Shown piece after piece: positions 6,601 to 31,443 of a DNA stretch of 64,000 nt. A program made the position numbers and the translations under genes. Under the pieces are notes generated by a model. The model did no database searches, was not told the DNA's origin, and saw only the letters and a list, made by a program, of their open reading frames with translations. The first letter of the stretch is position 1. Every line of letters starts with the position of its first letter. This stretch comes from Candidatus Gottesmanbacteria bacterium UBA6580 (GTDB taxonomy: Bacteria; Patescibacteriota; Microgenomatia; UBA10105; UBA927): contig DJJA01000001.1 of NCBI GenBank assembly GCA_002433895.1, forward strand, positions 15,438-79,437, given 5' to 3'.

Positions 6601-9600
6601 CAGGCACGCAAGGACGCATACCACTCGGCTCAAGCGGGGGCGACACCAGCCAAACAGTAGCTCCCACTGTCATAAAGGACGGATCCACCTATAAAATGTG
6701 GTATTCAGGAAGTGATGGTACTAATTGGAGAATATATCATGCTACCAGCAGCGACGGCCTTACCTGGACGAAATATGATAATTCCATCCCTGCCGCAAGT
6801 GATAGCACAAGCACAAACGGTAGGATCCCTCTTGGCAGCACCGGAGTCGATACAGTCCACTCATATATATTTTCTGTCATAAAAGACGGTCCAGTTTACA
6901 AGGGATGGTATTCCATGCAGGACGCATCAAATACGTACGTCGGATATGTCAGCTCCCTCGATGGACTCAGTTGGAGAAAATATCACAACGCTGCGCCGAC
7001 GGCAAGCAACACCACCTCCACAAATGGACGCATTGCTCGGGGTGCCTCCGGCGGAGATGTTACTCATGCGTTTTCACCTGCCGTTATCAAAGACGGAGCT
7101 GTGTATAAGGTTTGGTATGCAGGATATGACTCCACAAACTGGAGAATCTATCATGCGAGTATGAAGTCGATTACACTAAGTCAAAACACTGAATCCGTAA
7201 TCAAGCAAGAATCGAGTTATTCAGAAAAATTCACGACCGCTCCCCAAGCGGACGGAAGCGTTGTGGGACTCTGGCACCTCGATGAAACCGGTGGCACTGG
7301 TGCATATATCAAAGACAGCAGTGGCAACGCCAATCATGGCACTCCGACAGGAACCACCTTAAGCATGGGTAAATTCAACAAGGCGCGCACGTTTGACGGA
7401 AACAATGACTATATAGACCTTGGTACCGGTGCGACATTTGATTTTGGAAACAACGGCCCTTTCACCCATAGCGGATGGGTAAACATTACCACCATGCTCA
7501 ACTATGCTGGCTTTGTCAGCAAGGTTGTGACAGGTCGTGGCGGAACCTACTCATATATGACCGTCGTCATGGCGGACGGCAGCATGGCTGCCTATACAGG
7601 AGCTGCGTGGGTCACCCCCTGTCCTGCAGGTTCCGTAAGTGCCGGTCGTTGGCAACATATCGCGTTTTCATATGACGGCACCAACATTACTGGGTATGTT
7701 AATGGGGTATCGTGCGGTTCAATTGCCTTTACCTACACAGACAACACGGCACACAATCTATACATCGGCAGTTGGTATTCACCCTCAACTATCTATGATT
7801 TTAACGGCCAAATCGATGAGGTAGTCACCTCCAAAGCGGCTCGATCGGGGGAAGAAATCGCTGAAGAATATCGCCTCGGTCGCGATCATTATATGACAAA
7901 AACAATCAGCAGCACAGACCTTTCGGGAAAAAAATCACTACCTTTTAATATCGCCGCTGATCGGCCCGGCACCTATCTCCAAACAGTTGTCGGTGAAAGC
8001 GACTATGTTAACTATCAGCCGGACAGCAGCACGGGTGGATTCTGGCATTTTGATGAAACGATAAGTCCGGTCAAAGACGCTGCCGGAAAAGTAAATGGCT
8101 CAATAACAGGCACTACGTCGGTTCAAGGTAAAATCGGAAGAGGTCGCTATTTTAATGGCACAAGCGACTATGTCGCTATCGCTGATGTACCAACCCTCAA
8201 TCCTTCGTCACAAATCACCGCAGAGGCATGGATCCGCACCACGGGCACCGGCAGCAACCTTGCAATCCTTGGAAAAACCACCGGATGTGCCTCATCCGGC
8301 TATCTCCTGTGGCTTAATGAAAACGGTGTGGGTGCCGGTCTCCCTGGATTTTTTATTGGCGCAGGGGCGTGGCTTGACGGGACCATAGCGGTGAACGACG
8401 GCAAATGGCATCATATCGTGGGCACATTCGACGGGAGCACGGCAAGACTCTATATAGATGGTGCACTCAACGCGAGTGGCGCACGAAGCGGCACACTCAC
8501 TTCTACCACGCAACTACAGATAGGGGGGCAAACCACTGGGGCGGGATGTACTGGAGGACTTTGGTTTCCTGGTGACATAGATGAAGTTCGCATCAGTTCT
8601 ACCGCACGCTCCGCGGCAGAAATACGACAGGCATTCGAAATTGGACTCCGTAGCCACGCTGTAACCATCGACTTTGCCGCGGCGCTTGACAGCGGTAATC
8701 TCATCACGGGAAGCGGTGATACCGGTTTTACTATTGATGCGACGACTCATGGGTTGGGCAGCAAGGGCAGCGGATTATATCTCAGTGACAAGCTGATCGT
8801 ACGCGAAAACTATGACGGTACCGAATACATTGCCCAGGGCACAGTAACTGCGGTGACCACAAGCACCGGAGCCGTGACAGTTGCGTCGTGGGACACAGGA
8901 AGCACCTTCCCCTCCGGGGGCTATACGGCAAACGCTTCGATATTTAAATGGCAACGTGAATTTTGGAATATTGACAGTGGTGCTCCGGATGATGCGGTTG
9001 ACGCGGTCACGAATCTGACCCTACGGCTTACCGACGGCATTGAAGGCCGCACCATTTGGCTTGACGATTTCCGCAGTGCGGGAGATTACTTGACTACACC
9101 GGCGGGATCAACAATCACGAGTTCCACGGGTAACCGATACATACAGTATCGCGCAATTCTCCACTCATCTGACGAAGCCGTGTCGCCACAACTGACCTCG
9201 GTGACCCTTGATTACCGGACGAATGTCGCACCGTCGGCACCTACCAACATCCTTACTGAAGGAGCGGCAAACCCGACGGGTGTGATCGATACCACCCCGG
9301 AATTTTCCGCTATCTATGTTGACGGCGATAGCGGGGATATCGCGAATAAATACCGCATACAGGTTGATGATAACAGTAATTTTTTGTCCGTCCTTTGGGA
9401 TTCGGGTGCTTCGGGCACAAGCATGGCCAACTGCACTGCAGGCAACCGGTGTGCAGACGTTTCGTATGCGGGAAGCTCCCTCACACAGGGAACCACCTAT
9501 TACGTACGGTTTGCTTTCTGGGACGATGATAACACCGAAGGGGCATGGTCATCGGAATCCGCATTATTTACCATGAATGCCGCGCAATCTGCGCCGACGC

Positions 9601-10007
9601 TCGACTCCCCTTCCAATGGAGCGACAAACCGCATCCTAACCGTGAGCCTGAAAACTACGGGAACTGATACCGACGGTGATTACCTCCGCTACAAAATCGA
9701 ACTCTGTACAAATGTAGGGATGACCGCAAACTGCCAAACCTTCGACCAAACAAGTAGCCAAACCGGCTGGAGCGGTCAAAACACCCAAACAAGCACGGCA
9801 TACACCTCTGGCACGCAGGCGACGTACACAATCCAAACCCCCCTCACCGTAAGCACCACCTATTATTGGCGAAGCTACAGCATCGATCCCGGCGGCACCA
9901 ACACCTGGTCGCCGACCCAAGGTGCCCCCTACTCCTTCACCACGACCGATGGGACGACCAATTTCACCGTAGAAGGACTGCAACTTGATGGCATCAATCT
10001 AGACTGA
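3627..10007 (+). CDS. Giant membrane-anchored surface protein with four LamG (concanavalin-A-like) domains, a 5-bladed beta-propeller and C-terminal FN3-like modules
   Basis: N-terminal signal-anchor (ILVLILAIPLAVAAPSLV). Four LamG_3-like cores: LWHLDEASGDATDASGNS, QWNLNETSGTT, LWHLDETGGTGAYIKDSSGNANHG, FWHFDETISPVKDAAGKVNGS. Five ~70-aa blades of the form DGSTYKMWYSGxDGxxWRIYYATSSDGLTW (Asp-box-like SxDGxTW). Fibronectin-III-like C-terminus (APSAPTNILTE...YYVRFAFWDD). Confidence 0.85.
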   Translation: MKHRHKAHTMVIKIARHAVRWLLHRNIILVLILAIPLAVAAPSLVRMITAKNTSVVKKSPFSDRFTIRHASGDLTSNLEAKKQDVSLTVSRGQAKATFAMAVSPANTTHTKDEIVYTAKDGLRMRYQPIQNGIKEEIILDKPMGRSTFLSTLSVANVRPIVTPEGQIVFVDQNGTYQFHIMQPFAIDANGTVTRNIRYRLTDAADVYKKLSKDINQHTYISQQLLGPVPQPSGPGIAERSYMLVLDMDPSWLSDPSRAYPVTIDPTVVHDTTSEFATGTMNRVKDTGSGSAPYLESYYQPLIADRHTVGLWHLDEASGDATDASGNSLTGTNTGSTATTGVFSNGRSFDGSGNKIIVAHSAKFPTVERTVEAWVKITSTTSADRLLMGEGSEHWFTYDGATWGCAAGQIGYMVWINSAWSCVSGFTPSLNRWYHIAGTYNGNTIQLYVDGVLINKVSNTGSFTPASNSFDIGNYSGGGYGLPIVLDDVRLSNVARSAEDIKSSASRRSHAIYMSDILDLTGGTSSLMQWNSFSWNELGVATGDGESLKDTTSLYAQWNLNETSGTTAVNAAGSCGVSCNGTLTNFASTSSQDQAAGTGWTTANKRWGAGSLMFDGADDWISVASNPLTNSYVTINTWIKTSKISASRTIIDINTAANAGGMLLNFRSDCPMSLGIAMSWRDAAWVSGAYPFICGSRIDDGRWHMVTGVYDSQGAKLYVDGILANSSTRNSTLSNQSQTINIGKLVNQAAGAGYNFNGVIDATTIYSRALTAAEILSNYNASNIEFQTRVGNSSSPDDGSWEAWRPTTSETLIEGFENNEDNTRVYEMGFSAPGINPTWAKKNNAVPANSDTTTSDGRIPLGTNGTGDDTHAYGPALLKDGATYKMWYSGSDGATLRIYYATSSDGLTWTKYNNAIPSTSDTTTSDGRIPLGTNGTGDDAHTGYPTVIKDGSTYKMWYSGHDGSAWRIFYATSSDGLTWTKYNNAIESPSNTTGTQGRIPLGSSGGDTSQTVAPTVIKDGSTYKMWYSGSDGTNWRIYHATSSDGLTWTKYDNSIPAASDSTSTNGRIPLGSTGVDTVHSYIFSVIKDGPVYKGWYSMQDASNTYVGYVSSLDGLSWRKYHNAAPTASNTTSTNGRIARGASGGDVTHAFSPAVIKDGAVYKVWYAGYDSTNWRIYHASMKSITLSQNTESVIKQESSYSEKFTTAPQADGSVVGLWHLDETGGTGAYIKDSSGNANHGTPTGTTLSMGKFNKARTFDGNNDYIDLGTGATFDFGNNGPFTHSGWVNITTMLNYAGFVSKVVTGRGGTYSYMTVVMADGSMAAYTGAAWVTPCPAGSVSAGRWQHIAFSYDGTNITGYVNGVSCGSIAFTYTDNTAHNLYIGSWYSPSTIYDFNGQIDEVVTSKAARSGEEIAEEYRLGRDHYMTKTISSTDLSGKKSLPFNIAADRPGTYLQTVVGESDYVNYQPDSSTGGFWHFDETISPVKDAAGKVNGSITGTTSVQGKIGRGRYFNGTSDYVAIADVPTLNPSSQITAEAWIRTTGTGSNLAILGKTTGCASSGYLLWLNENGVGAGLPGFFIGAGAWLDGTIAVNDGKWHHIVGTFDGSTARLYIDGALNASGARSGTLTSTTQLQIGGQTTGAGCTGGLWFPGDIDEVRISSTARSAAEIRQAFEIGLRSHAVTIDFAAALDSGNLITGSGDTGFTIDATTHGLGSKGSGLYLSDKLIVRENYDGTEYIAQGTVTAVTTSTGAVTVASWDTGSTFPSGGYTANASIFKWQREFWNIDSGAPDDAVDAVTNLTLRLTDGIEGRTIWLDDFRSAGDYLTTPAGSTITSSTGNRYIQYRAILHSSDEAVSPQLTSVTLDYRTNVAPSAPTNILTEGAANPTGVIDTTPEFSAIYVDGDSGDIANKYRIQVDDNSNFLSVLWDSGASGTSMANCTAGNRCADVSYAGSSLTQGTTYYVRFAFWDDDNTEGAWSSESALFTMNAAQSAPTLDSPSNGATNRILTVSLKTTGTDTDGDYLRYKIELCTNVGMTANCQTFDQTSSQTGWSGQNTQTSTAYTSGTQATYTIQTPLTVSTTYYWRSYSIDPGGTNTWSPTQGAPYSFTTTDGTTNFTVEGLQLDGINLD
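6121..7170 (+). repeat. Intragenic tandem DNA repeats, period 210 bp (70 aa), encoding the five beta-propeller blades of the LamG giant protein
   Basis: A 57-nt string gataccaccaccagcgatggccgtattcccctgggcacaaatggcactggtgatgac occurs identically at 6174-6230 and 6384-6440. agcgacggcctyacctggaccaaatacaacaatgc recurs at ~6333, ~6543 and, degenerate, ~6751. Confidence 0.8.
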
Positions 10008-11744: not shown

Positions 11745-12281
11745 TCACTCAGAACACACCGCGTAGTCAGAGCCTGATAACCCGCTGCATATAGCGCCAC
11801 AGCGCGACCATGAGGCAGCGATCTCCGCGTCGGACACGTTCTCCAGCGATCCCTTTAGACAAAAGTCGGCACCGCTGTTTGCATCATTATAAAACATGCT
11901 GGTTCCTAACTCTCCCGGAAATTTTGTCATATACACCGTCTCACAGCCCGTACCTCCTGCCGCAAAATCCACCGAACATCCAGCAGGGCACAATGTATCA
12001 CCGTCAGCACCACACCCTGCAATATAATTTAACTTGCCCACGCCGCCATTTTGAGAAGCGGGATAGATTTTATAATCGTTATAATACAACTGCAATGCTG
12101 TTTTGAGCTGGTTTAATTCACCTTTCCTCCGCGCGTCACGCGCCCTGGTTCTTGCTCCCAAAAAATTTGGCAAAGCCAATCCGATAATCGTTGCGATTAC
12201 CGCGATGGCCACGAGCAGTTCTATGAGACTAAAACCATCTATTTTGTTTCGTTTATTAGTATTAGATATCGTTTTTTTCAT
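11745..12281 (-). CDS. Type IV pilin / pseudopilin-like protein
   Basis: Class III (prepilin) signal: KIDG|FSLIELLVAIAVIATIIGLAL, with Phe at +1 and Glu at +5. Hydrophobic N-terminal helix followed by a Cys-containing C-terminal domain. Confidence 0.8.
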   Translation of the reverse strand: MKKTISNTNKRNKIDGFSLIELLVAIAVIATIIGLALPNFLGARTRARDARRKGELNQLKTALQLYYNDYKIYPASQNGGVGKLNYIAGCGADGDTLCPAGCSVDFAAGGTGCETVYMTKFPGELGTSMFYNDANSGADFCLKGSLENVSDAEIAASWSRCGAICSGLSGSDYAVCSE

Positions 12282-12292
12282 GTTTGATATGT

Positions 12293-12838
12293 TTAAGGGG
12301 TAGTGTTACTACTGCTTATGCCATACGTACACGCGACCGCGCTATCCAATGAGCAATCGGTGCCAGTGTATCCAGATTGATTAACATTGTCGCCTTCATC
12401 CAGCGTATTTTCCAGTTTAGCATAAATTCTGTAGGAATCCGTTCCCGCCTCATAGAAATATGTTTGGCTACTCAAGGGATCTTCCGGAGTAAGCACCATA
12501 TACAAGGTTCCGTTGGTGTCTTTAAATTGCCCGCCCCACTCACATACTTGAACATCACCACACCCGGGACTCGCGCAACAACCGACCATCTCACCCGCAC
12601 TATTACTTGTTGGATACCGGCCTTTATCACTGTAGTATGTCTCAAGCGCGGTCGTCAGATTGCGCAAATCATTTTTCCGCCGGTTATCGCGGCCGCGGCG
12701 CGAACTCGATGCATACGTACCGGTTGCGATAGCCACAAGTACTGCAAGTATCACCATAACAATCAACAATTCCATTAATGTGAAGCCGTCTCGATAACGT
12801 AATTTTTTCATCATATCTTTCATAGTATAGCTCATCAT
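12293..12838 (-). CDS. Type IV pilin-like protein. Start moved to the internal ATG; the track ORF extends to 12937.
   Basis: Prepilin motif RYRDG|FTLMELLIVMVILAVLVAIATG. The ATG at 12838-12836 sits 1 nt after the TAA of the upstream pilin gene. The 5' extension in the ORF track would overlap that gene by ~100 nt. Confidence 0.75.
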   Translation of the reverse strand: MMSYTMKDMMKKLRYRDGFTLMELLIVMVILAVLVAIATGTYASSSRRGRDNRRKNDLRNLTTALETYYSDKGRYPTSNSAGEMVGCCASPGCGDVQVCEWGGQFKDTNGTLYMVLTPEDPLSSQTYFYEAGTDSYRIYAKLENTLDEGDNVNQSGYTGTDCSLDSAVACTYGISSSNTTP

Positions 12839-12839
12839 A

Positions 12840-13562
12840 TTATTGCGCACACCAATAACTTGCGCTACCGCATAATCCCTGACAGTCTGATTCAGCAAAG
12901 GACCGGGGACACCCGTAACTTGCAGGATCACCGACATTATTACATGTTCCAGGGCTCACCACCTGACCACCTGAAAGCGTTCCCGGGCGGCAGGCGTATG
13001 GCCCGTCATACGCGGGTGTAGGCGTTAATGAAGGCGTCGGTGTGGTGCCTGGTACAAACCCGGGAGCCGTTACAGTCGTGCCGGTCGCCAAACAGTAATT
13101 CCAATACGCGCCCCATCCGCACCCTTGTTCTGCATGACAGCCAAGCGTCGTAATATCGGGATCCGCCCAATCCTGCAACTTGGTGCAGACCCGGTTTCCA
13201 AGACATACATTCGTCTCGCTATCCGGCTGGTATAAATACGGCTCCTGGGTCGTAGGATCGCAGGGAATTTTATCTAAATACGGACTCAATGCGTTACCTT
13301 CGCAACTGTTAAGAATTTCCATAGAAGGATAACAATTATTGTCGTTATAGTACTCTTCAAATGCCCGCCTGATATTGGCGATATCAGTTTTCCGTTGGGC
13401 GTCCTGCGCGCGGAAAACGCTCCGTTTCCAATTAACCAACAAAAATAATACTGCGAGGATGGCGATAATAACGATGACAATAAGCAACTCCGCAAGCGTC
13501 CAGCCGGCCTGAGGTGATCGGCGGGCGTGCTTTACGAGGTGGGCAGACAGGATCCGTTTCAT
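12840..13562 (-). CDS. Type IV pilin-like protein, Cys-rich C-terminal domain
   Basis: Prepilin-like leader ending QAG|WTLAELLIVIVIIAILAVLFLL with Glu at +5. It is the first gene of a three-gene pilin tandem. Confidence 0.7.
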   Translation of the reverse strand: MKRILSAHLVKHARRSPQAGWTLAELLIVIVIIAILAVLFLLVNWKRSVFRAQDAQRKTDIANIRRAFEEYYNDNNCYPSMEILNSCEGNALSPYLDKIPCDPTTQEPYLYQPDSETNVCLGNRVCTKLQDWADPDITTLGCHAEQGCGWGAYWNYCLATGTTVTAPGFVPGTTPTPSLTPTPAYDGPYACRPGTLSGGQVVSPGTCNNVGDPASYGCPRSFAESDCQGLCGSASYWCAQ

Positions 13563-13631: not shown

Positions 13632-15665
13632 ATGGTACACTACGTTCATAATTATCATAATCTGTTTGCTATGATCTTCTTTTTTGCTTTCCTCTTTCTT
13701 TCATTCTTGATGCCACACGATCAGGAGTTATATCTTGAGTTTTACTGGGCAGCCGTGCTTCTCATCCTCCTGGGATATCGTATATTTATCCAACAAAAAG
13801 CGCTCGTTTTGCCCCGCACGTTATTATTGCTGTGGGGAACAACCCTTCTTGGATTAATAATCACGGCGGCGGCGTCACGGAGTATCGCCAGCTCACTTGC
13901 TGTTTTCGTCCGGTATTTCGAAGGGGCAATTATATTTTTTCTCGCACTAGATAATCGTGCACATCACCATACGACACCCACCGTCACGAAGGCACTCCTG
14001 GCGACAGGGAAAGCCACGATACTTACTTTTTTTCTCCTTATCTGCTTCCCGTTTGTTTCGCAAGTTATCCCCCCGTATAACGGCATCCTGGCCGCAAACG
14101 GGCATCATCCAATCGCGCATTTCCTCGTCGCCCTCGTTCCCGTTATAACGCTACTCTCGCTCCCCCGGGGTGCGAAACGATATATACATTACTTTCTGGT
14201 ATTCCTAGCTCTCATTCTCAGTGCAGCAAGAGGCGCATGGATTGTCGTAGCAGCATTTCTCACATTCCGATCCACACAAATCAAAACAATATCCCATCAG
14301 TTTTTTACTTTCACGGTAATCGGCCTATTTATCACCGCTTTTTCCGGCATGTTTTGGCTATCACTACTGCCTTACGAACAAAAGCTGAATGTAGTAGAGA
14401 CCTATCCCCGGCTTAGCATGTTTGTGAAAGAGAGTAACCACACCTTGCGGTTTGGCTACATACAAGAAGCGGTACACGCGCTACGGGATAAACCATTATT
14501 GGGGCACGGACCGGGCACATTCCACCTCCTTTCACGTCTCTATGCCGCATCACCGGCTTCGTACGCGCGCTTTACCCACTCACTCCCCTTTGAAATTCTC
14601 GCTGAAAACGGATTTGCCGGCACCATTCCTATCGCAGTGCTTTTTGGCACGGTCTTTTTATCGTTGTTGTCAATTATACGGATCTCAACAGACACACCGC
14701 GCGCCGCGCTTGCATGGAGCGCACTTCTCCTTCTTTATTATAGTGTCATTGAAACAACACTCAACAACCTCTCTATCTGGCTCCTATTCTGGGCAATCAG
14801 CGGTCATGTGGTCCCGTATGTGGCACGCGTAAATCAACGATTATCAGAGACCGTGTCTTTTATCATGTTGTTCGTATTATTAGCGTTCATTGCAAGCTAC
14901 GGGGTAACGCGCGTGTTTTCCAGCAGGCTTACCCTCACTCAATCAGTTGCCATCGCTCCGTATTTCAAAAGCAATATCCTGCAGGAAATCACGACCGCCG
15001 GTACACAGGAAGTGAAAAGGAACGCACCAAATATTCTCGCGTGGCACAGTAAGGATCCGGATATGTATCATGCCCTTGCCCGGACGGCTAATCCGTTTGT
15101 TGCCGAAAAATACTATATGAAAGCGTTAGACTATGACCCACATAATAATGGCTACCTCAAAGAATACCTCGCGCTCCTTATAGATAATGATAAAAGCAAC
15201 CAAGTCGGGGCCACCATGTGCCGTTTTTCTCAATCAGACCCACGGATGAAATCCAACACACTTTGCGGGTATCTTCGTGGAGAGTCATTTACCCGCTACA
15301 GCAATACCGAATCATTTTATTCTGCGCTCAACTATCTCCAAGGTACAGATGGCAAGGCAAAATTTTATTATTTTCTAGGCCTTTCGGTTTTTCATACACA
15401 ACAGGATATTGATGGTGCCACACTCTTATGGCACACCGCCCGCGATATCGCTCCGGAATGGGGATTTTACCACCTCGAGCTTGCGAGTGCGTATTACTAT
15501 TGGCATAAAAACGAAGAAATGGCAGACGCAGCACTGCTGGCGTGCATACAAAACGCATACGCGAAATCAGGATGCAGAAAAGCAGTGTCTGATCTCACTG
15601 ACCTACTCGAGCCCGGACTGCGGGCTCCGGATATCATAGCAATACCTGCAATACTCCCCCAATGA
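13632..15665 (+). CDS. O-antigen ligase/polymerase-like (Wzy_C) polytopic membrane protein with C-terminal TPR domain
   Basis: At least 10 predicted TM helices. Conserved SAARGAWI and HGPGTFHLL...LAENGFAG motifs typical of O-antigen ligase-like proteins. C-terminal ~230 aa are TPR-like (YYMKALDYDPHNNGYLKEYLALL). Start may instead be the ATG at 13671. Confidence 0.7.
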   Translation: MVHYVHNYHNLFAMIFFFAFLFLSFLMPHDQELYLEFYWAAVLLILLGYRIFIQQKALVLPRTLLLLWGTTLLGLIITAAASRSIASSLAVFVRYFEGAIIFFLALDNRAHHHTTPTVTKALLATGKATILTFFLLICFPFVSQVIPPYNGILAANGHHPIAHFLVALVPVITLLSLPRGAKRYIHYFLVFLALILSAARGAWIVVAAFLTFRSTQIKTISHQFFTFTVIGLFITAFSGMFWLSLLPYEQKLNVVETYPRLSMFVKESNHTLRFGYIQEAVHALRDKPLLGHGPGTFHLLSRLYAASPASYARFTHSLPFEILAENGFAGTIPIAVLFGTVFLSLLSIIRISTDTPRAALAWSALLLLYYSVIETTLNNLSIWLLFWAISGHVVPYVARVNQRLSETVSFIMLFVLLAFIASYGVTRVFSSRLTLTQSVAIAPYFKSNILQEITTAGTQEVKRNAPNILAWHSKDPDMYHALARTANPFVAEKYYMKALDYDPHNNGYLKEYLALLIDNDKSNQVGATMCRFSQSDPRMKSNTLCGYLRGESFTRYSNTESFYSALNYLQGTDGKAKFYYFLGLSVFHTQQDIDGATLLWHTARDIAPEWGFYHLELASAYYYWHKNEEMADAALLACIQNAYAKSGCRKAVSDLTDLLEPGLRAPDIIAIPAILPQ

Positions 15666-16534
15666 AATACCCAACCCTCTCTATCATCACCGTGACAAAA
15701 AACAGATCCAAACTGTTATATATTGCGCTTACTTCACTCATGGGGCAATGCTTACCGGGAGACGAAATTATCGTTGTGGATGCCTCTACTGATGACACGC
15801 CTGCGGTAGTCGCGCACCTCGCCAAAAAACTCCCTATCGTGTACGTACGCTATCTCAAAAAAGGTTATCCTGCTTTTTACAACAAAGCTGCCCGGCGCGC
15901 CAAGGGTGATATCCTCGTTTTTTTTGACGACGACTGCAAAGCCTCCCCAGCATTCCTTTCCCGTATCAGACAAGCCCATAGAAAACATCCAAACGCCGTC
16001 ATCCAGGGGCTCACGCACAGCGTCCCCCGCGGCAATCTATATGTCGATATTATGGGCGACCACTATAATAACTGGCTTGCCACAATGTCACTATCCAAAA
16101 ATACGCTTAAAACATTTGACAGCAAAAACGCGTCCATACCCCGTGCGTTATTTTGGAAATATGGAGGGCTATCGCCGCGCATGCACCGGGGAAGTGAAGA
16201 TATTGAGCTCGGATTACGCCTCAGACGGGCGGGTGTCACTATTTATCTCGACCGGTCTATCGTCGCCTCCCATCACGAGCGGACTACGCTTCATGGATTT
16301 CTTTTTCAACATCGGCGGTTTGCGGCAAGTGAAGGGTATCTTGATAAGATATTACCTCCATCCGAACGCCTTGGCGTTATCCCCCCAAAAAAACTCCTGC
16401 TCCATATTCGAAGTTTTTTTCGCCGGGAGGTCAATTTCATACAGCATGGTAAATGGAAAGAGGCTATCGGTCATGTACTTCTCTATATAGCTCTTGCATG
16501 TATAAGAATTTGGGGGTACGCTAGGCATCGATGA
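15662..16534 (+). CDS. GT2-family glycosyltransferase
   Basis: LSIITVTKNRSKLL...EIIVVDASTDDT...GDILVFFDDDC (DxD). ATGA overlap with the upstream gene. Confidence 0.8.
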   Translation: MKYPTLSIITVTKNRSKLLYIALTSLMGQCLPGDEIIVVDASTDDTPAVVAHLAKKLPIVYVRYLKKGYPAFYNKAARRAKGDILVFFDDDCKASPAFLSRIRQAHRKHPNAVIQGLTHSVPRGNLYVDIMGDHYNNWLATMSLSKNTLKTFDSKNASIPRALFWKYGGLSPRMHRGSEDIELGLRLRRAGVTIYLDRSIVASHHERTTLHGFLFQHRRFAASEGYLDKILPPSERLGVIPPKKLLLHIRSFFRREVNFIQHGKWKEAIGHVLLYIALACIRIWGYARHR

Positions 16535-16986
16535 AACCCCGGATCGGCATCATCACATCAAAGGGAGGGCACGTCTATCAAATGCACCGCCTAAAACCCT
16601 GGTGGAGCAAGTACGATCACTTTTGGGTAACATTTTCCGGTGAAGATGTCGCTTCGCTGCTCAAAAAGGAACGTGTTTATTACGGCTATTATCCAGAAAC
16701 CAGGAATATGTATAACGCCATCCGGCACCTGGGTCTCGCATGGCACATCCTCCGTACAGAACGCCCCACGCTCCTCATTAGCTGCGGCGCAGGAATCGCG
16801 CCGCCATTTTTTATTATCGGCAAATTACTCGGCATAAAAACGGTATTTATCGAAGTATTCGACCTTCTCAAACACCCCAGTCTTACCGGTCGCATCCTTT
16901 CACCTTTTGTCGATCATATACTCGTGCAACATCCTACTCAAAAAAAATTTTATCCACGCGCGCACTATAAAGGAGCGATATTATGA
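16531..16986 (+). CDS. Alg14-like membrane-anchor subunit of a bipartite glycosyltransferase (Cps14F/EpsE-like)
   Basis: IGIITSKGGHVYQM (SGGH motif), then PTLLISCGAGIAPPFFIIGKLLGIKTVFIEVFDLLKHPSLTGRIL, matching the Alg14-like ES..R....SLTGK signature. ATGA overlap with upstream GT2. Confidence 0.75.
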   Translation: MKPRIGIITSKGGHVYQMHRLKPWWSKYDHFWVTFSGEDVASLLKKERVYYGYYPETRNMYNAIRHLGLAWHILRTERPTLLISCGAGIAPPFFIIGKLLGIKTVFIEVFDLLKHPSLTGRILSPFVDHILVQHPTQKKFYPRAHYKGAIL

Positions 16987-17100
16987 CCGTGTGGTAGAAT
17001 TTCGGCACGCTTTAGTTCATTGCGTATTATATGGATAATCTAAACAATATGGGATATATACAAAGAAAGGAGACTGAAATTTTGCCAGCGTCATAACGCA

Positions 17101-17610
17101 ATGGCCGAAATTTCACTACCCGGTATGATACTGGTAACGGTCGGTTCTACGCTGTTTCCCTTTCAACGGATGACAACCCTTGTCGAACATCTTATACATA
17201 TCCGCCCGGCAAATGAAAAAATTATCTTTCAATATGGTCACACACCACCCCACTTTCTGGATCCTGAAATAGAACCACACGCGTTCATTCCACACCGAAA
17301 ACTTATAGAGTATATGAGGCAGTCGCGAGTCATTATTTGTCATGGCGGACCAGCGACCATCTATCAAGCGCTTTCATTTGGCAAAATCCCATGGGTGCTC
17401 CCCCGGCAAAAACACTACGGTGAACACCTTAATGATCATCAGGTAGATTTTGCCAAGTTTATGGCAAACCACGGCCTTATCCGCGTGGTAACCCCAAAAA
17501 CATCACTTATAAATATCGTTACCGCTGCCGATAGCATTGACCCGATACAAAAGAAAAATCCAGCGCTTATCCGCTATTTAGATACATTGGTTCATCAAGT
17601 GGCAAAATAA
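17101..17610 (+). CDS. Alg13-like catalytic subunit (Glyco_tran_28 C-terminal domain, Cps14G/EpsF-like). Start may be the ATG at 17125.
   Basis: MILVTVGSTLFPF followed by VIICHGGPATIYQALSFGKIPWVLPRQKHYGEHLNDHQVDFAKFMANHG, the hallmark of Alg13/MurG C-terminal-type domains. It sits immediately after the Alg14-like gene, as in streptococcal cps14F-cps14G. Confidence 0.8.
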   Translation: MAEISLPGMILVTVGSTLFPFQRMTTLVEHLIHIRPANEKIIFQYGHTPPHFLDPEIEPHAFIPHRKLIEYMRQSRVIICHGGPATIYQALSFGKIPWVLPRQKHYGEHLNDHQVDFAKFMANHGLIRVVTPKTSLINIVTAADSIDPIQKKNPALIRYLDTLVHQVAK

Positions 17611-17632
17611 GCCTCATATACCCTTCTCTATC

Positions 17633-17654
17633 GCGCCCGCTTTCACTGCGGCGC
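17633..17654 (+). other. GC-rich hairpin (7 bp with one bulge, 7-nt loop) in the Alg13–radical SAM intergenic spacer, without a U-tract
   Basis: GCGCCCGC-tttcact-GCGGCGC. No following T-run, so it is not a classical intrinsic terminator. It could be an RNA processing or attenuation element, or coincidental. Confidence 0.25.
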
Positions 17655-17723
17655 ACAGATGATATACTCAGTTATCAGACAGGGATAGCGCCCACTATTC
17701 CTCCCTCTCTGTAATACATCACT

Positions 17724-18737
17724 ATGGTAGACACGCAGCACCAACTACCCAAAAGCGCATTTATTTCCGTGACGCTGTTATGCAACTCCCGTTGTATCCA
17801 CTGCGACATCTGGAAAAACCGCGGGCTCGATTTTTTACCGGTATCGATCTATAAAAAACTACCCCCGTCGCTTGAAATGGTCGATATTACGGGTGGTGAA
17901 CCGTTCCTACGGAATGATATCCCCGAAATTGTCAGGATAATCCGGAAGCGTTGTCCCAAAGCGCGGATATTGATCACAACAAACGGATTTCTGCCGGAAA
18001 AAATCAAAAAATACGCGCCGACCATCGTTACCTACGATCCTGCCATAGCATTCCGCCTTTCCCTTGACGGATGGGGGGAAACCCACGAAAAAGTCAGGGG
18101 CATACCACAAGCGTTTGAAAAAGTTATGCAATCGGTAGCCATCCTCAAAGAAGCGGGCGTAACAGACATTGGCCTTACATTCACCCTCATGGCAATTAAT
18201 CAGCACGAACTGAAATCCGTCTTCACTTATTGCAAAAAAGAAAAACTCGCATTCTCTTTAAATGTGGTCCATGACTCCCCGATCTACTTTGGCAAAGGGA
18301 AAATGCGGCTGCAGCCACAACCAAAAAGTGTAAAAAAAGACTTTGATTATTTGTTTTCTGCACAAATGAAAAGCATCAACCCCAAAGATTGGGGGAAGGC
18401 ATGGTTTAACCGGTATTCGTATGAATATATGCTGCACCACCGCCGCCCATTACCCTGTGGAGCGGGAGAAAACTTTTTTTATATGGATCCGTTCGCCAAT
18501 ATATTTATGTGTCAAATCAAAAATTGGCCTATTGGAAACTTGCAAAAACAATCATTTGAACAAATATGGTATTCAAAGCCAAAACAAAAGTTTCTTCCTG
18601 CAGCCCACGCGTGCAATGACTGTTGGATAGTGTGTACGGCAAAAGACGCTATTAAAAAAAACAAACTCAAAGTAGGCGCTGACATCATATCGCTTATTGC
18701 CACAGGCAAACCCATGTTGTCACCCCATGAACCATGA
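17724..18737 (+). CDS. Radical SAM enzyme with C-terminal SPASM/twitch-like Cys-rich domain
   Basis: CNSRCIHC is CxxxCxxC at residues 21-28. GGEPFL glycine-rich SAM motif and TNG motif present. C-terminal cysteines PCGAG...FMCQ...HACNDCWIVC are consistent with an auxiliary Fe-S cluster domain. Confidence 0.85.
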   Translation: MVDTQHQLPKSAFISVTLLCNSRCIHCDIWKNRGLDFLPVSIYKKLPPSLEMVDITGGEPFLRNDIPEIVRIIRKRCPKARILITTNGFLPEKIKKYAPTIVTYDPAIAFRLSLDGWGETHEKVRGIPQAFEKVMQSVAILKEAGVTDIGLTFTLMAINQHELKSVFTYCKKEKLAFSLNVVHDSPIYFGKGKMRLQPQPKSVKKDFDYLFSAQMKSINPKDWGKAWFNRYSYEYMLHHRRPLPCGAGENFFYMDPFANIFMCQIKNWPIGNLQKQSFEQIWYSKPKQKFLPAAHACNDCWIVCTAKDAIKKNKLKVGADIISLIATGKPMLSPHEP

Positions 18738-19636
18738 AAAGCACGCCGACTATCAGCGTTGTCATCCTTACCAGCGACCGCCCGCACCTTTTGGAAAAGG
18801 CGCTTACCTCTATCCACCGCCAACAAACGCAGCCAATTGAAGTGGTTATTGTCGATGGCTCAACCCGCTTCCACAAAGAAACAGTCGCGGTCATCAAAGC
18901 GCATACCAACACCCTACACATCATCAAACGGAATACGAAGCACTCAATCCCCTATGGTCGCACCCTGGGCGCCAAAACCGCACACGGTGACATCGTTGTG
19001 TATCTGGATGATGACTGCGTGGCACATGAACAGTATCTGCAAAAATTTCAACAGCATTTTAAACGCGACCCTGACCTCACTGCCGTTATCGGCCGCATAA
19101 AAAACGCTCACGAAAACAATGTCTATGCGGCAACACAATTTGCATACTACCACCGGGGACTGAACCATTTTTTCCCCGGGCTAAAACAGGCAGCTCCCCT
19201 TCTCTGGGGGAGAATACTCGATTGCGAAGTAATGGGGATCAGACGGTCTACACTGCTTTCCTTTGGATTTCCTGAGCGGCACCGCAGATATAGAAATGAC
19301 GATGTGGAACTCGGTCTTCGGCTCATAAAAGCAGGAAAATCCGTGTTCTTTGATCCCACAATCATCGCGTATGCGACCCCAAGGGTTGCGTTGGCACCGC
19401 TTTGGACAGCCGCGTTTTGGAACGGATATTCTGACGCCTGTACCGCGCACCTTTATCACGTCAATCTGAAAGAGGCGCCATACCCTACTTTTTTTCCGGT
19501 ATGGTTTATTCATGAGCTATACTCAAAAACATCATTCGGGATGACGAAAAAAATGTGGTACGCGCTGCTCCTCCTGCTATTCCCAATAGTCTCTCGCCTG
19601 GGTAAAGTGTGGTATCACCTACATCGATTTATATGA
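18734..19636 (+). CDS. GT2-family glycosyltransferase
   Basis: ISVVILTSDRPHLLEKAL...VVIVDGST...GDIVVYLDDDC. ATGA overlap with the radical SAM gene. Confidence 0.8.
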   Translation: MKSTPTISVVILTSDRPHLLEKALTSIHRQQTQPIEVVIVDGSTRFHKETVAVIKAHTNTLHIIKRNTKHSIPYGRTLGAKTAHGDIVVYLDDDCVAHEQYLQKFQQHFKRDPDLTAVIGRIKNAHENNVYAATQFAYYHRGLNHFFPGLKQAAPLLWGRILDCEVMGIRRSTLLSFGFPERHRRYRNDDVELGLRLIKAGKSVFFDPTIIAYATPRVALAPLWTAAFWNGYSDACTAHLYHVNLKEAPYPTFFPVWFIHELYSKTSFGMTKKMWYALLLLLFPIVSRLGKVWYHLHRFI

Positions 19637-20730
19637 AAGTTGCCATCATTTACGATGCGATAACTGAATTCGGGGGCGCTGAACGCGTGCTCCGCTCGTT
19701 ACTTCATATATATCCTGACGCGGATATTTTTACCACTGTCGCTGACCAAACGATCATCAATAGATTTTTTCCCCGCTTACACCCCAAAAAACTCCATACC
19801 CTCCCCCCTTGGGTACAAGGACTCGCCACCCACACCTCGCTTGCCCAACTACTTTCACCGGTTATTTGGAAGTCATTTAATCTGAACGGTTTTGACGTGG
19901 TTATTTCGAAACCCGCGCATCTTATGTCAAACTTGGTAATAACAAGATGCACGCATATCCAGTATATCCATACCCCTCCCCGGAATATTTTTGGCATCGT
20001 CCCCCCTACCCCTTTGCAACGCGCGACGCGCTATGACCAGCTTATTATCCCCCGTTACCGACGCGCCATCGCGTCAACACCTTTTCTTCTTACCAATTCG
20101 TACCATATGCAACGGAGGATATCGACGCTTCTCGGCGTCACCCCACAAGTTATTTATCCTCCAGTCCGTATTCCGACCCGGGTACAACAACGCGGACAAG
20201 GCCGCTATTACCTCACGGTCGGAAGACTGGAAAAAGAAAAACATATCGAACTTGCCATTATGGCATGCAACATGCTCAAGCTCCCTCTTATGGTGGTAGG
20301 CAAAACAAACGAACCGAGATACGAGCAGTATCTGCATAGCGTTGCAGGACCAACTATCACGTTTTTAGGATTCCGTTCAGATCAGGAAATACACGCGCTC
20401 TATAAACATGCTATCGCATTCCTTTTTACCGCCCGTGACGAGGACTTTGGTATTGCGCCGGTAGAGGCAATAGCCCACAGCGTTCCGGTTATCGCCTACT
20501 ATGGTGGCGGCACCAAAGAAACAGTGAAGGAGGGTGTTACAGGGCATTTCTTCTTCGTCCATACCGCGGCCGCACTGGCAGCTACCCTCAAAAAATTCAA
20601 CCCATCACTATTCCGTCCGGCTGCCCTTCATGCACACGCGAAAAAATTCAGTGAGACAATTTTCAGAAAGCAATTCACGGCGTATATTCATACATCACGG
20701 AGCGAATCAGAAGCTATTGGGAAGAAGTAA
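19633..20730 (+). CDS. GT4-family (GT-B) glycosyltransferase. Start at MKVAIIYD; the track start 19609 is in-frame upstream.
   Basis: EDFGIAPVEAIAHSVPVIAYYGGGTKETV is the GT4 E-x7-E region. The ATG at 19633 overlaps the TGA of the upstream GT2 as ATGA. Confidence 0.8.
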   Translation: MKVAIIYDAITEFGGAERVLRSLLHIYPDADIFTTVADQTIINRFFPRLHPKKLHTLPPWVQGLATHTSLAQLLSPVIWKSFNLNGFDVVISKPAHLMSNLVITRCTHIQYIHTPPRNIFGIVPPTPLQRATRYDQLIIPRYRRAIASTPFLLTNSYHMQRRISTLLGVTPQVIYPPVRIPTRVQQRGQGRYYLTVGRLEKEKHIELAIMACNMLKLPLMVVGKTNEPRYEQYLHSVAGPTITFLGFRSDQEIHALYKHAIAFLFTARDEDFGIAPVEAIAHSVPVIAYYGGGTKETVKEGVTGHFFFVHTAAALAATLKKFNPSLFRPAALHAHAKKFSETIFRKQFTAYIHTSRSESEAIGKK

Positions 20731-21583
20731 TAATCTCGGTAATTCTCGGCTCTATATCAATGCGCGAAAGAAATAACGGTACCGGCGCGTTTATCTTTAT
20801 CGGCGACGAATCGAGATAATACAATCCGTCACCGACTTTTCGTGTTGCCAAACGGATAGTAAGGAACACGTCGTATTTCCGTGGATGTGGTTTATTAAAC
20901 ACATTACCATACATATCCCAACTTGTCCGCAGCGCAGGTGTTACCGTTTTTTCCAGCACTTCAGCGAGTACCTCACCATTCGAATCTTTGACCGTATCCC
21001 CCACAACAATCGCGTCTGCGATTGCTTTATCGACCCCGGTTGTTTCTGTAAACGGCTCATGAAGCAACGGGCCATCGGACTTTACCTGAGCCTTCACGGT
21101 AACCCATACCGGCTTTTCTTTCTCTCCCGCGGGTACACGCACAATTATGCCATTAATGATCACAGACTGAATACTAAGACGGACCCATTCACCCACCTGC
21201 AGTGTGGTCCCCTGGTACCGGTATTGGTCACTTTTGTCATTATAGGAAGCCCGGAGCCGCAATGTGACATACACCGTCTTCTTGGTAGTAAACGGCGTGC
21301 CCGACCTGGGCTGTTCAAAAGAAGTCACATCAGTGACTTCGGCAATCACCCTACCCAATCCGTCCTTTCCCTGCACTCCAACCCGTATCGCTTCCGCAGA
21401 AGTTCCTTTCGGAGATCCGTTGTCCTGCCAAATGAGATCTTTTTCAGCAATACGCACAGTTACCAATACATCTGCTGATTTGGGAGATATAAATATATAT
21501 ATTAACGCTGCGATGATAAGCAGCGTCGTGATACCTGCATATTCTAAAAATCCGGCCCGGTTGATGAGTTTTTTGATATTCAT
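20714..21583 (-). CDS. Membrane-anchored hypothetical protein (single N-terminal TM, extracytoplasmic domain)
   Basis: TM ITTLLIIAALIYIFI. Balanced composition. Its ATG overlaps the TGA of the upstream Wzy-like gene as ATGA. Confidence 0.6.
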   Translation of the reverse strand: MNIKKLINRAGFLEYAGITTLLIIAALIYIFISPKSADVLVTVRIAEKDLIWQDNGSPKGTSAEAIRVGVQGKDGLGRVIAEVTDVTSFEQPRSGTPFTTKKTVYVTLRLRASYNDKSDQYRYQGTTLQVGEWVRLSIQSVIINGIIVRVPAGEKEKPVWVTVKAQVKSDGPLLHEPFTETTGVDKAIADAIVVGDTVKDSNGEVLAEVLEKTVTPALRTSWDMYGNVFNKPHPRKYDVFLTIRLATRKVGDGLYYLDSSPIKINAPVPLFLSRIDIEPRITEIITSSQ

Positions 21584-24564: not shown

Positions 24565-25737
24565 ATGGGAGCACCTCTCACTTCATCCTGCATATTTATC
24601 CCATTTCATAATCCGTGGTGCTGGCACACGGACTACGCCAATCAAACCGCGCGGATACTATCCAAAAATCACACGGTGCTATGTTTTCTTTGGGGCGACG
24701 CGGTTTCAATTAAAGAAGTAGTAACCCGCGCGAAAGCGTATTATCCACTCACGAAACACGGTAACCTGTGGAAAATGCAGCCACTGTACCTCATCCCGGG
24801 TAAACGAATACTTTGGGTACAATATATAAGTTTTTTTCTGAATGCTATTGCCGCATATATTATTTGTTCAATAATTTCTATTTATCAAAAAAGAACAATC
24901 ATTTTTTGGTTTTTTGGGTACTTTGATCCGGTATTTCTCCTGCTCCCCCCAATGTTTCGATTTCATACAACCGTCTATGATTGTGTAGACATCGCTACCC
25001 ACCCGCACCCATCCCTTGCCCGCCGGCTGAAAGAGGCTGAACAATCATTGATATCCCACGCTTCACTGGTGGTCGCAAATTCGCATACACTCGTCCGACG
25101 GCTCAAACACATACGCCCTGATGTACATCTGGTGCCGTTGGGGTTCAGAATTGGCATGTTTACCCACCCCACCCTGCACCCCCTCCCACTTACCAAAAAA
25201 CGCCCGGTTATCGGATTTATCGGATCTATCGATTACCGCGTAAACTTCCGATTGCTACTGGATCTTTCGACACGTCACCCTTCATGGCAATTCGCGCTCG
25301 TGGGTCCGATATTTTATGATCATCTTACCCACGACGCGCAAACACTTATGAAACGTCTCCTTGAGCGCCCCAACGTCTTGCATACAGAAGTTCTTCCGCA
25401 GCATATCCCCGCGGTACTCTGCCAATTTTCAGTGGCGATTATTCCATATGACACCAGAGTTCCACTCAGTCGCTACGCGTATCCCATGAAAATTATGGAG
25501 TATTTTTACGCACAAAAACCGGTCATCGCCACCCCCATCTATGAACTCATGAAATTTATCCCTCTCATCCGTACGGCGAAAAGTACAAATGATTGGACAC
25601 GCGCCATACAGCAAACATTGCGCCACCCGGTTACGTCATCTGCCTCCAGGCAAATGAAAAACATCGCCCGGAAAAACACCTGGGAAAAGAAGCTAGCCGC
25701 GATACAGACAGAACTCGCCCGCCTTGGTATTCTATAA
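24565..25737 (+). CDS. GT4-like (GT-B) glycosyltransferase
   Basis: C-terminal GT-B domain with IGFIGSIDYRVNF...YPMKIMEYFYAQKPVIATPIYEL. A candidate promoter TTTACG-17-TAGAAT lies upstream. Confidence 0.7.
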   Translation: MGAPLTSSCIFIPFHNPWCWHTDYANQTARILSKNHTVLCFLWGDAVSIKEVVTRAKAYYPLTKHGNLWKMQPLYLIPGKRILWVQYISFFLNAIAAYIICSIISIYQKRTIIFWFFGYFDPVFLLLPPMFRFHTTVYDCVDIATHPHPSLARRLKEAEQSLISHASLVVANSHTLVRRLKHIRPDVHLVPLGFRIGMFTHPTLHPLPLTKKRPVIGFIGSIDYRVNFRLLLDLSTRHPSWQFALVGPIFYDHLTHDAQTLMKRLLERPNVLHTEVLPQHIPAVLCQFSVAIIPYDTRVPLSRYAYPMKIMEYFYAQKPVIATPIYELMKFIPLIRTAKSTNDWTRAIQQTLRHPVTSSASRQMKNIARKNTWEKKLAAIQTELARLGIL

Positions 25738-25772
25738 ACGAATCAGTAACGGGTACGTCGCCATAGCTCAAC

Positions 25773-27329: not shown

Positions 27330-27340
27330 TGATCTCTCCC

Positions 27341-28039
27341 TTAAACACAAATCGTTTTACTTCGCATACCGGAACATAGGTTGATGGCAGTATGAAGGTA
27401 ACTTACTGCCATCCTCAATAATTGCGATTTGCTTTGTCCATATTGCCGGTTTTTATAACGCACCGGCACTTCCCGGATACGTAATCCGGATATTTTAGCA
27501 GCATATACCAGACGTAAATGATAATCTCCATAGCCTACATATATACGGCCGGGCTTCATACGGCGCAATACCTGTGCACGGATTGCGTAATACCCGCTGG
27601 TATTGTCCCATATCGGAAATGACAGCGCGTACCGTAAAACGGCGTTAAATATCCAACTTAGGATATAACGCGTGCGATCATGCATGCCGCCACCATGAAT
27701 AAACCGTGACCCTACAACAAGATCTGCCGTAGATAACGCACGGAGCAGTGAAGGAATATGTTCGGGATCGTGGTTTCCGTCGGCATCCATGCCGATAATA
27801 ATATCGCCTCGCGCACGCGCCACCCCTGCCCCTATGGCCGTGGCCAGACCCCGCACTTTTTTCCGCACAACAACCCGTATACTCGTGCCAAAGCGTTTTC
27901 GGACCGCATCTGCGGTGTGATCCGGACTATCATCGTCAACAACAATTATTTCGGCAGTGTAAGCTGATATACGCCTGATTGCGGCACGGATCTTCGGGAT
28001 AAGCACCATAAGATTTTCGCGTTCGTTATACGAAGGCAA
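27341..28039 (-). CDS. Polyprenol-phosphate hexosyltransferase-like GT2 (DPM1/GtrB/ArnC-like). The 5' end is uncertain.
   Basis: LPSYNERENL...EIIVVDDDSPDHT...GDIIIGMDADGNHDPEH. The track start is a TTG codon. The conserved N-terminal block (VSVILPSYNE) continues in-frame upstream, with no ATG/GTG/TTG before the upstream stop. Confidence 0.7.
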   Translation of the reverse strand: MPSYNERENLMVLIPKIRAAIRRISAYTAEIIVVDDDSPDHTADAVRKRFGTSIRVVVRKKVRGLATAIGAGVARARGDIIIGMDADGNHDPEHIPSLLRALSTADLVVGSRFIHGGGMHDRTRYILSWIFNAVLRYALSFPIWDNTSGYYAIRAQVLRRMKPGRIYVGYGDYHLRLVYAAKISGLRIREVPVRYKNRQYGQSKSQLLRMAVSYLHTAINLCSGMRSKTICV

Positions 28040-28059
28040 AATGACGGAAACACACGCTG

Positions 28060-30974: not shown

Positions 30975-31037
30975 AAATCATACTCAAGTGCCCACTATTT
31001 GACAAGTGACGCATGATCAGCTCAACATAAACAATAT

Positions 31038-31439
31038 ATGCCGATAAGCGCCGACCTGGAGGTCACATACAAATCCGTCAATATACCCATAACAGTATGG
31101 ATGGAAGTGCCAAGCGAAGAAATAAGAAAGCTGATGAAATGGCCTAAAGAAAAAAAGGTGCTCGCAGTGCGGGTGCCTAACACGTTTAAGGAAGGATACA
31201 TTCACTACCTTACAAAAAATAAACACGCCATGAGCCTTGGACACGAAGATTATAAAGCCACCATTACCGCGCTCACCACAAAATATCAACAATCTGCCCG
31301 GACTATCTTGGGTCAACTCGCCAAAGGCGTGCCGCTCACCCTCGATTACGCAACACCGCTCCCATATCTTGATAATACCCGGGGGCCACTCCAGGAACCT
31401 CTCATCGTGTCCAAGGGAAAGGTAAAACGGAAGAAATAA
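31038..31439 (+). CDS. Small basic hypothetical protein, antisense to the flanking minus-strand operon
   Basis: Fills a 469-bp gap between the DegT and LbH genes. Composition is protein-like and Lys-rich, with a SKGKVKRKK tail. The competing minus-strand ORF 31017..31316 is Phe/Cys/His-rich and looks like junk. Confidence 0.45.
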   Translation: MPISADLEVTYKSVNIPITVWMEVPSEEIRKLMKWPKEKKVLAVRVPNTFKEGYIHYLTKNKHAMSLGHEDYKATITALTTKYQQSARTILGQLAKGVPLTLDYATPLPYLDNTRGPLQEPLIVSKGKVKRKK

Positions 31440-31443
31440 CCTG

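Follow-up and report, generated by a model that had tools for sequence, protein, structure and literature searches.

A twitch-type radical SAM protein encoded in a glycan-assembly operon of Candidatus Gottesmanbacteria

To our knowledge, the carbohydrate-acting radical S-adenosylmethionine (SAM) enzymes with a twitch or SPASM domain that have been described, namely BtrN, SpeY, HygY, AprD4 and BlsE, all come from antibiotic pathways. BtrN possesses one auxiliary cluster, with one cysteine before and one after a β-hairpin and a CX2C motif after the following helix, and HygY is a radical SAM epimerase. BlsE acts on a sugar: a glucuronic acid moiety is reported to be decarboxylated at its C5 (PMC3715490). 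In full-text literature searches, no report was found of a radical SAM enzyme of the kind described here in Wzy-type or Alg13/14-containing clusters, nor was a PssD/PssE-type transferase found for which a radical SAM enzyme next to it or fused to it had been described. The 64-kb window (the whole stretch of DNA analysed) of a Candidatus Gottesmanbacteria (Patescibacteria) genome encodes a 337-aa radical SAM protein within an operon of seven + strand open reading frames (ORFs) at positions 13632-20730. Their products are, in order, a Wzy-like protein, a family 2 glycosyltransferase (GT2), PssD/Alg14-like and PssE/Alg13-like proteins, the radical SAM protein, a second GT2 and a family 4 glycosyltransferase (GT4). 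The order from the first GT2 onwards had already been proposed in a first-pass annotation made from the sequence, and it was borne out by scans against Pfam and NCBIfam at curated cut-offs, from which the family calls for the operon proteins were taken.

The 337-aa protein is probably a sugar-tailoring enzyme with a twitch domain, belonging to an uncurated family that takes part in Wzy-type surface-glycan assembly. The observations behind this reading are the domain architecture of the protein, the conservation of its motifs, its gene neighbourhood, the natural fusions of its family and the similarity of its fold to known enzymes.

Domain architecture and family placement of the radical SAM protein

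The protein scores 62.2 bits against the Radical_SAM family (PF04055, gathering threshold 29.5), which places it within the superfamily. Both the CxxxCxxC triad and the GGEPFL motif pointed out in the first-pass annotation were located, and their conservation was followed in an alignment of 25 radical SAM sequences sharing 43-79% identity (Table 1). No B12-binding domain was detected by the Pfam scan, as that annotation had stated. Outside the triad the protein contains seven cysteines (positions 77, 170, 245, 263, 297, 300 and 304), which had been read as a seven-cysteine C-terminal twitch/SPASM-like domain. The twitch part of this description stands; the seven cysteines and the SPASM part do not, as the count includes C77 and C170, two non-conserved residues of the core barrel. 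In the same alignment C245, C263, C297 and C300 do not vary, and C304 varies hardly at all.

Across the 150 best family representatives the signature reads C-x17-C-x30-35-C-x2/3-C-x3-C, and the SPASM motif CX2CX5CX3C was found in none of these 150. The Pfam SPASM domain score passes (PF13186, 29.5 vs 21.5). A full SPASM domain, with seven cysteines and two auxiliary clusters, was considered and rejected: the family has five conserved cysteines only, arranged at their end as CX2CX3C, and no cysteine downstream. Five conserved cysteines allow only one auxiliary cluster to be fully ligated, and the C-terminal domain is, on the evidence of cysteine pattern and structural model, a BtrN-like twitch domain for which one auxiliary cluster is predicted. 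The AlphaFold model (predicted local distance difference test, 90.9; predicted template modelling score, 0.90) shows six β/α units, a helical insert (residues 200-238) and a β-hairpin (251-263) flanked by C245 and C263. The first of these cysteines stands before strand 251-254 and the second ends strand 259-263, within a family consensus of G-x4-C; a helix (285-295) comes next, followed by C297/C300/C304.

Five cysteines also bear on the possibility of an anSME-like protein maturase, which would oxidise or cross-link a residue in a cluster enzyme or in a protein exported from the cell, for instance a pilin, as anSME needs two auxiliary clusters and at least seven cysteines, besides a cognate sulfatase with a C/S-x-P-x-R motif nearby. 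Such a role is improbable, in spite of a sulfatase-fold protein encoded near one distant homologue (locus L042) and of Cys-rich pilin genes upstream in the window: these sulfatase and pilin neighbours are not kept across contexts, there is no sulfatase among the window proteins scanned, and the fusion partners of the family are transferases of three folds rather than one target protein.

None of the curated cut-offs of NCBIfam is reached by the radical SAM protein. Its matches were to PTO1314 (62 bits, cut-off 306), AhbC (59.8, cut-off 650), AhbD (56, cut-off 500), MoaA (54, cut-off 231), the twitch domain-containing radical SAM model NF033640 (53.8, cut-off 170), NirJ (48.6, cut-off 515), MftC (41.6, cut-off 265), HpnH (37.9, cut-off 225) and Tes (34, cut-off 450). 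When the family profile was searched against PDB sequences, SkfB was the best sequence/profile match (E 3.9e-17), followed by CteB (E 2.8e-12), anSME (E 1.6e-11), BlsE and BtrN (both E 2.7e-10). By structure, the best neighbour of the model is the sugar-acid decarboxylase BlsE, narrowly above peptide maturases. In the window protein the radical SAM core is reached by about residue 10, whereas the alignments of SkfB and CteB begin only around residue 100 of these maturases, and their N-terminal leader-binding domain is thus missing in the window protein. The lack of this domain and the structural proximity of BlsE fit the suggestion of the first-pass annotation that the enzyme acts on a nucleotide- or lipid-linked sugar.

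That SkfB heads the PDB matches would also suit a maturase of ribosomally synthesised and post-translationally modified peptides (RiPPs), a form of which, maturing a glycosylated peptide, had been named as an alternative. Here a small precursor would be modified and then glycosylated by the GT2 or GT4 proteins, in the manner of mycofactocin (MftC/MftF) or of sactipeptide/glycocin systems. Both GT2 proteins do match MftF, weakly (59-69 bits), with scores far below the cut-off of 280, and the MftC score is likewise far from its own. No precursor-sized ORF and no conserved small ORF was found in the operon, in keeping with the earlier statement that no precursor peptide lies nearby. Nor is there room for one, since the gaps within the operon measure only about 113 nt and the sole ORF there encodes 21 Cys-free residues inside an insertion specific to the window. 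The protein has no leader-binding (RRE) domain at its N-terminus, and the clusters of the family carry Wzy, Wzx, Wza, Wzc and Bac_transf, which are typical polysaccharide pathway genes. A peptide maturase is therefore a very remote prospect.

Gene neighbourhood, natural fusions and proposed role

The nearest loci were found in metagenome-assembled genomes (MAGs) of Candidatus Gottesmanbacteria, the top one being UBA5942, whose radical SAM protein is 90% identical. The order GT2, Alg14, Alg13, radical SAM, GT2, GT4, together with DUF4330/Wzy_C, is kept in all ten Gottesmanbacteria loci (radical SAM identity 74-90%; two loci clipped by contig ends), so that the neighbourhood conservation which the first-pass annotation had proposed to examine was indeed observed. 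L004 (6434-7996) and L009 encode a multi-pass membrane protein of 520 aa between PssE and the radical SAM gene; its hydrophobic profile resembles that of a GT-C transferase.

More distant homologues (46-64% identity) were also located in glycan clusters, in nine of nine further contexts. A link to Alg13 is present in five of these, the radical SAM gene standing directly downstream of Alg13 in L048, L049, L050 and L052 and being fused to it in L041. The most similar, L048 (64%), encodes Wzy, GT2, Alg14, Alg13, radical SAM, GT2 and three GT4 proteins, then DUF4330/Wzy. Alg14, Alg13 and radical SAM genes follow one another in L049 (53%), L052 (52%) and L050 (46%), with a 4-nt overlap between Alg13 and radical SAM in each, and in L041 (50%) Alg13 and radical SAM form a single polypeptide (P0111, 480 aa). 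L051/L055 (58%) is a classical diderm exopolysaccharide cluster, which comprises an outer-membrane barrel, Wza, Wzc, Wzy, TPR, methyltransferase, radical SAM and MurJ-type flippase. In L045 (47%) the radical SAM gene lies right behind a Bac_transf initiating transferase, with DegT and GFO_IDH adjoining and Alg14/Alg13 about 5 kb away. The gene follows a GDSL protein and overlaps a GT4 gene in L042 (47%), and in L053 (48%) it stands after GH10 and two GDSL proteins at a contig end.

A second radical SAM gene, of 367-369 aa, occurs in the same glycan clusters of L049 (4819-5928) and L050 (9796-10899). These paralogues are 27-29% identical to the window protein and share its C-x17-C...CxxCxxxC pattern, which points to diversification for different sugars; there is no second copy in the window. 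Radical SAM loci L012-L040 (Acidobacteria and other phyla, 24-30% identity) share no cluster genes and were treated as other families.

A profile search of 1.84 billion representatives returned 1,247 proteins at E <= 1e-30, and a range of fusions emerged when the longer of the best 150 representatives were scanned against Pfam. The radical SAM domain is joined to an Alg13-like domain (P0123), to GT2 (P0156, P0184, P0169 and P0241), to GT4 (P0189, P0206 and P0260), to the flippase-like membrane domain LPG_synthase_TM (P0257), to GHL15 (P0178) and to a methyltransferase (P0196), and it also occurs in tandem (P0233 and P0234). The best evidence for a role of the family in glycan assembly comes from these fusions, made independently with transferases of three different folds; they also show that the family is not tied to the Alg13/Alg14 pair alone. 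A parallel case, not an ortholog, was seen in L011 (1-13943), from an Omnitrophota MAG: a 712-aa protein, 25% identical over the core, consists of an N-terminal domain without assignment, an Alg13-like domain and a radical SAM-SPASM domain. Its operon encodes five further radical SAM proteins (one with a double domain), a DegT aminotransferase and two asparagine-synthase-like proteins, and looks like a radical-chemistry-heavy sugar pathway.

Position and fusions together dispose of a housekeeping radical SAM enzyme, acting in cofactor, tRNA or rRNA modification and present in the operon by chance. The generic matches to the MoaA, AhbC/D and NirJ models could suggest one, but all lie far under their cut-offs, which settles the check for a housekeeping subgroup raised in the first-pass annotation. 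As the glycan-cluster position is kept down to 46% identity and transferase fusions exist, this explanation is effectively refuted.

In the preferred reading, that of a sugar-tailoring enzyme, a cluster held by C20/C24/C27 would cleave SAM reductively, and the 5'-deoxyadenosyl radical so formed would abstract hydrogen at an unactivated carbon of the sugar. Either a nucleotide-sugar donor or the polyprenyl-diphosphate-linked product of PssD/PssE may be the substrate, on the side of the membrane that faces the cytoplasm. A single auxiliary [4Fe-4S] cluster, with C245/C263/C297/C300 as ligands as in BtrN, would handle the electron, and the extra conserved C304 is a possible hydrogen donor. The result would be a redox-type tailoring, for which three chemistries are plausible by analogy with precedents: dehydrogenation to a keto-sugar (BtrN, SpeY), epimerisation (HygY) or a BlsE-like decarboxylation of a uronic acid. 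The data favour none of them. The tailored sugar would then serve as acceptor for the second GT2 (GT2b), whose gene begins in overlap with the stop codon of the radical SAM gene, and the finished lipid-linked oligosaccharide would be handled by the two Wzy_C-domain proteins encoded at the locus.

Several points weigh against this reading. The substrate, cluster number and chemistry of the enzyme are all inferred, and the assignment of cysteine ligands in the twitch domain rests on sequence pattern and secondary structure. The profile matches to BlsE and BtrN span the radical SAM core only. The radical SAM gene does not overlap that of PssE in the window, and in L042 and L053 there is no Alg14/Alg13 in the sequence seen, which suggests a link to glycan clusters generally and maybe not to the PssD/PssE step specifically. 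Finally, the transferase fusions would also suit an enzyme whose product is a non-sugar substituent or whose target is the lipid carrier.

This last alternative, in which no hydrogen would be abstracted from a sugar ring carbon, is unlikely, though it carries more weight than the other rivals. Possible precedents are the addition of 5'-deoxyadenosyl (HpnH, MqnE) and the formation of C-C or ether bonds on a polyprenyl or lipid chain (GDGT-MAS/Tes). The fusion of P0257 to a flippase-like domain would suit it, as would the weak matches to HpnH (38 bits) and Tes (34 bits), and fusions to transferases show no more than a shared pathway and location. Both scores, however, are far under the respective cut-offs listed above, and both proteins are structurally weaker matches than BlsE, SkfB and anSME. 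In addition, the commonest partner is the nucleotide-sugar-binding Alg13-like half-transferase.

The family is real, widespread and unannotated, and its fold is unsurprising. A bolder and more tentative proposal is that the window protein may be the founding example of a widespread twitch radical SAM clade. At E <= 1e-30 the clade counts about 1,250 representatives, and a GT2, GT4 or Alg13-like domain is fused to many of these. Its members would act by radical C-H chemistry directly on the lipid-linked oligosaccharides of Wzy-type assembly and would be concentrated in anaerobic, uncultivated lineages (Patescibacteria, Omnitrophota). If true, radical chemistry would shape cell-envelope sugars across a large share of uncultivated bacterial diversity. 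Radical oxidation, epimerisation or decarboxylation of a carrier-bound sugar would form a new tailoring class, undescribed for bacterial polysaccharide or protein glycosylation, pointing to sugars beyond the standard routes dependent on NAD or pyridoxal phosphate. It would also offer radical SAM enzymology a defined, testable class of substrates, the undecaprenyl-diphosphate-linked oligosaccharides made by the neighbouring transferases, and would help to annotate a recurrent gene in the glycan islands of Patescibacteria.

Operon layout and the surrounding glycosylation island

The features of the window are listed in Table 1. The four ATGA start/stop overlaps reported in the first-pass annotation (15662, 16531, 18734 and 19633) are all present; they account for four of the six 4-nt overlaps among the 29 same-strand junctions of the window. 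Such an overlap possibly reflects translational coupling and does not imply a fixed stoichiometry. The claim that the radical SAM protein is stoichiometrically coupled to the transferases was not upheld: its gene overlaps only the downstream GT2b, and PssE is set apart by 114 nt from PssD and by 113 nt from the radical SAM gene.

Table 1. Features of the 64-kb window and of the radical SAM protein encoded in it
Feature	Position	Strand	Evidence and remarks
1158-aa protein	148-3624	+	No Pfam match
2126-aa protein	3627-10007	+	Four Laminin_G_3/ConA-like lectin domains
Three type IV pilin-like genes	11745-13562	-	N_methyl motif; divergently upstream of operon
Wzy_C membrane protein, 677 aa, long C-terminal extension	13632-15665	+	PF04932 5e-12; first operon gene
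GT2a glycosyltransferase, 290 aa, hydrophobic C-terminal helix	15662-16534	+	PF00535 1.3e-20; ATGA at start
PssD/Cps14F (Alg14-like), 151 aa	16531-16986	+	NF041549 114.3 bits vs cut-off 110; PF08660 4e-11; ATGA at start
Insertion specific to the window, 135 nt	16987-17121		
PssE/Cps14G (Alg13-like)	17122-17610	+	PF04101 3.3e-13; 50.4 bits vs 22
Radical SAM protein with twitch-type auxiliary-cluster domain, 337 aa	17724-18737	+	Pfam Radical_SAM and SPASM
CxxxCxxC triad, C20/C24/C27	17781-17804	+	Nearly invariant in 25-sequence alignment; SAM-cleaving [4Fe-4S] motif
GGEPFL SAM-binding motif, residues 57-62	17892-17909	+	G57, G58, E59, P60 and L62 invariant in alignment
Twitch Cys signature C245-x17-C263-x33-C297-x2-C300-x3-C304	18456-18635	+	Alignment and secondary structure of model
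GT2b glycosyltransferase, 300 aa	18734-19636	+	PF00535 7.4e-19; start overlaps radical SAM stop via ATGA
GT4 (GT-B) glycosyltransferase, 365 aa from ATG 19633	19633-20730	+	PF00534 3.9e-26; ATGA at start
DUF4330 protein, 289 aa, one N-terminal hydrophobic segment	20714-21583	-	PF14221 3.5e-10; convergent with operon
Second Wzy_C membrane protein, 486 aa	21580-23040	-	PF04932 1.3e-15; ATGA overlap with DUF4330 gene at 21580-21583
GT4, PMT_2-like 518-aa protein, 232-aa GT2, methyltransferase, 342-aa GT2	24565-29815		
DegT aminotransferase, hexapeptide acyltransferase, 245-aa GT2	29832-32719		
PMT_2 and YfhO-type membrane proteins	35885-39596		
RmlC-like cupin, weak GT87 match with NPCBM domain, PIG-L deacetylase	41271-50845		GT87 match below threshold
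ORF of at least 4390 aa	50827-63999	-	Reaches last window bases and may run on; sole Pfam match a weak methyltransferase-like stretch

As judged from sequence families, PssD is the membrane-anchoring, acceptor-side half of a split GT-B transferase. PssE is its Alg13-like nucleotide-sugar-binding counterpart and matches no curated equivalog, with 77.3 bits against NF041548 (PssE/Cps14G, cut-off 120). Its ORF opens at 17101 (169 aa to 17610), and the conserved start MILVTVG lies at 17122; a 161-aa protein (P0270) is 96% identical to it. The pair is an ordinary PssD/PssE-type transferase. The earlier view that a split Alg14/Alg13 arrangement is notable outside streptococcal loci could not be maintained, as the curated families PssD/Cps14F and PssE/Cps14G are named after genes of Rhizobium and Streptococcus and a fused form, WelK, comes from Sphingomonas. 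The gap between the two ORFs arises from the 135-nt insertion, which sits right behind an ancestral PssD/PssE ATGA still visible at 16983, so that the ancestral overlap is broken. In an alignment with three relatives (L001, L003 and L006) the insertion is missing and PssD and PssE overlap by ATGA. No second copy of it was found by BLAST in the window or in any fetched locus, and it is thus not an evident repeat or mobile element.

The 677-aa Wzy_C protein could be an O-antigen polymerase, a ligase or an O-oligosaccharyltransferase. Its gene is syntenic in L001-L009, and its counterpart in L048, L049 and L052 is also a Wzy_C protein, with TPR added in L049 and L052. DUF4330 is present in L001-L010 as well as in L045, L048, L049 and L050; its gene overlaps that of a Wzy_C protein of about 490 aa, and this conserved pair accompanies the transferase/radical SAM module across Patescibacteria. 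DUF4330 might assist in chain-length control or in export. No RNA element was identified when the whole window was scanned against Rfam. Sigma-70-like promoter matches show no excess over shuffled sequences (13 vs 13.8 expected), and terminator-like matches (11 vs 8.3 expected, sd 3.1) are inside one standard deviation.

The operon sits inside a large surface-glycosylation island, within which (24565-50845) several proteins of 515-776 aa have no Pfam match. Searches of the window by tblastn and domain scans yielded neither a Bac_transf initiating (phosphoglycosyl) transferase nor a MurJ/Wzx-type flippase. The giant proteins that flank the island are surface proteins. One of the pilin-like proteins upstream, of 240 aa, possesses a Thr/Pro-rich linker, PGTTPTPSLTPTPA, and a Cys-rich C-terminus, and most Gottesmanbacteria loci retain these pilin neighbours, the exceptions being L007 and, beyond these loci, L048. 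Since Wzy_C-domain proteins include the pilin O-oligosaccharyltransferases PilO/PglL, the cluster might, by analogy, glycosylate the neighbouring pilins. The GC content of the window is about 47%; GC skew is negative in every 2-kb window (-0.016 to -0.20) and lowest at about 22-52 kb, regardless of gene strand.

Comparison with known systems

The pair of small genes preceding that of the radical SAM protein matches the split GT-B families of PssD/PssE and Cps14F/Cps14G. SPASM maturases (SkfB, CteB, SuiB, anSME, PqqE and MftC) differ from the window family, which has five cysteines against their seven or more and is without CX2CX5CX3C; the window protein, moreover, has neither an RRE/leader-binding domain nor a precursor peptide, and its context is polysaccharide assembly.

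BtrN and SpeY (PDB accession no. 4M7T and 7WZV) are twitch dehydrogenases of aminoglycoside and spectinomycin pathways with carbohydrate or cyclitol substrates. The cysteine layout of the window family agrees with that of BtrN as given at the outset, and in some contexts of the family a DegT aminotransferase accompanies the radical SAM gene, as expected for BtrN-type chemistry. BtrN, however, is much shorter, at about 250 aa, and is without the helical insert of the window protein (200-238), the window family has a fifth conserved cysteine, and the curated twitch model NF033640 is not reached by the window protein (53.8 vs 170).

BlsE (cytosylglucuronic acid decarboxylase of blasticidin S, PDB accession no. 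7VOB) is like the window protein in being of similar size and in having no extra N-terminal domain. The two are only 16% identical, with a profile match limited to core residues 11-143. The C-terminal cysteine motif of BlsE has been proposed as C317xC319xxC322 (PMC3715490), which differs from the pattern of the window family. BlsE belongs to a nucleoside-antibiotic pathway and, unlike the window family, is neither linked nor fused to transferases of Wzy-type clusters. Common ground is offered by the PssD/PssE family, which includes glucuronosyltransferases (WelK match), and by the uronic acid substrate of BlsE. The twitch architecture of the window protein is of a known kind, placed in a glycan-assembly context for which no earlier report was found in the full-text searches.

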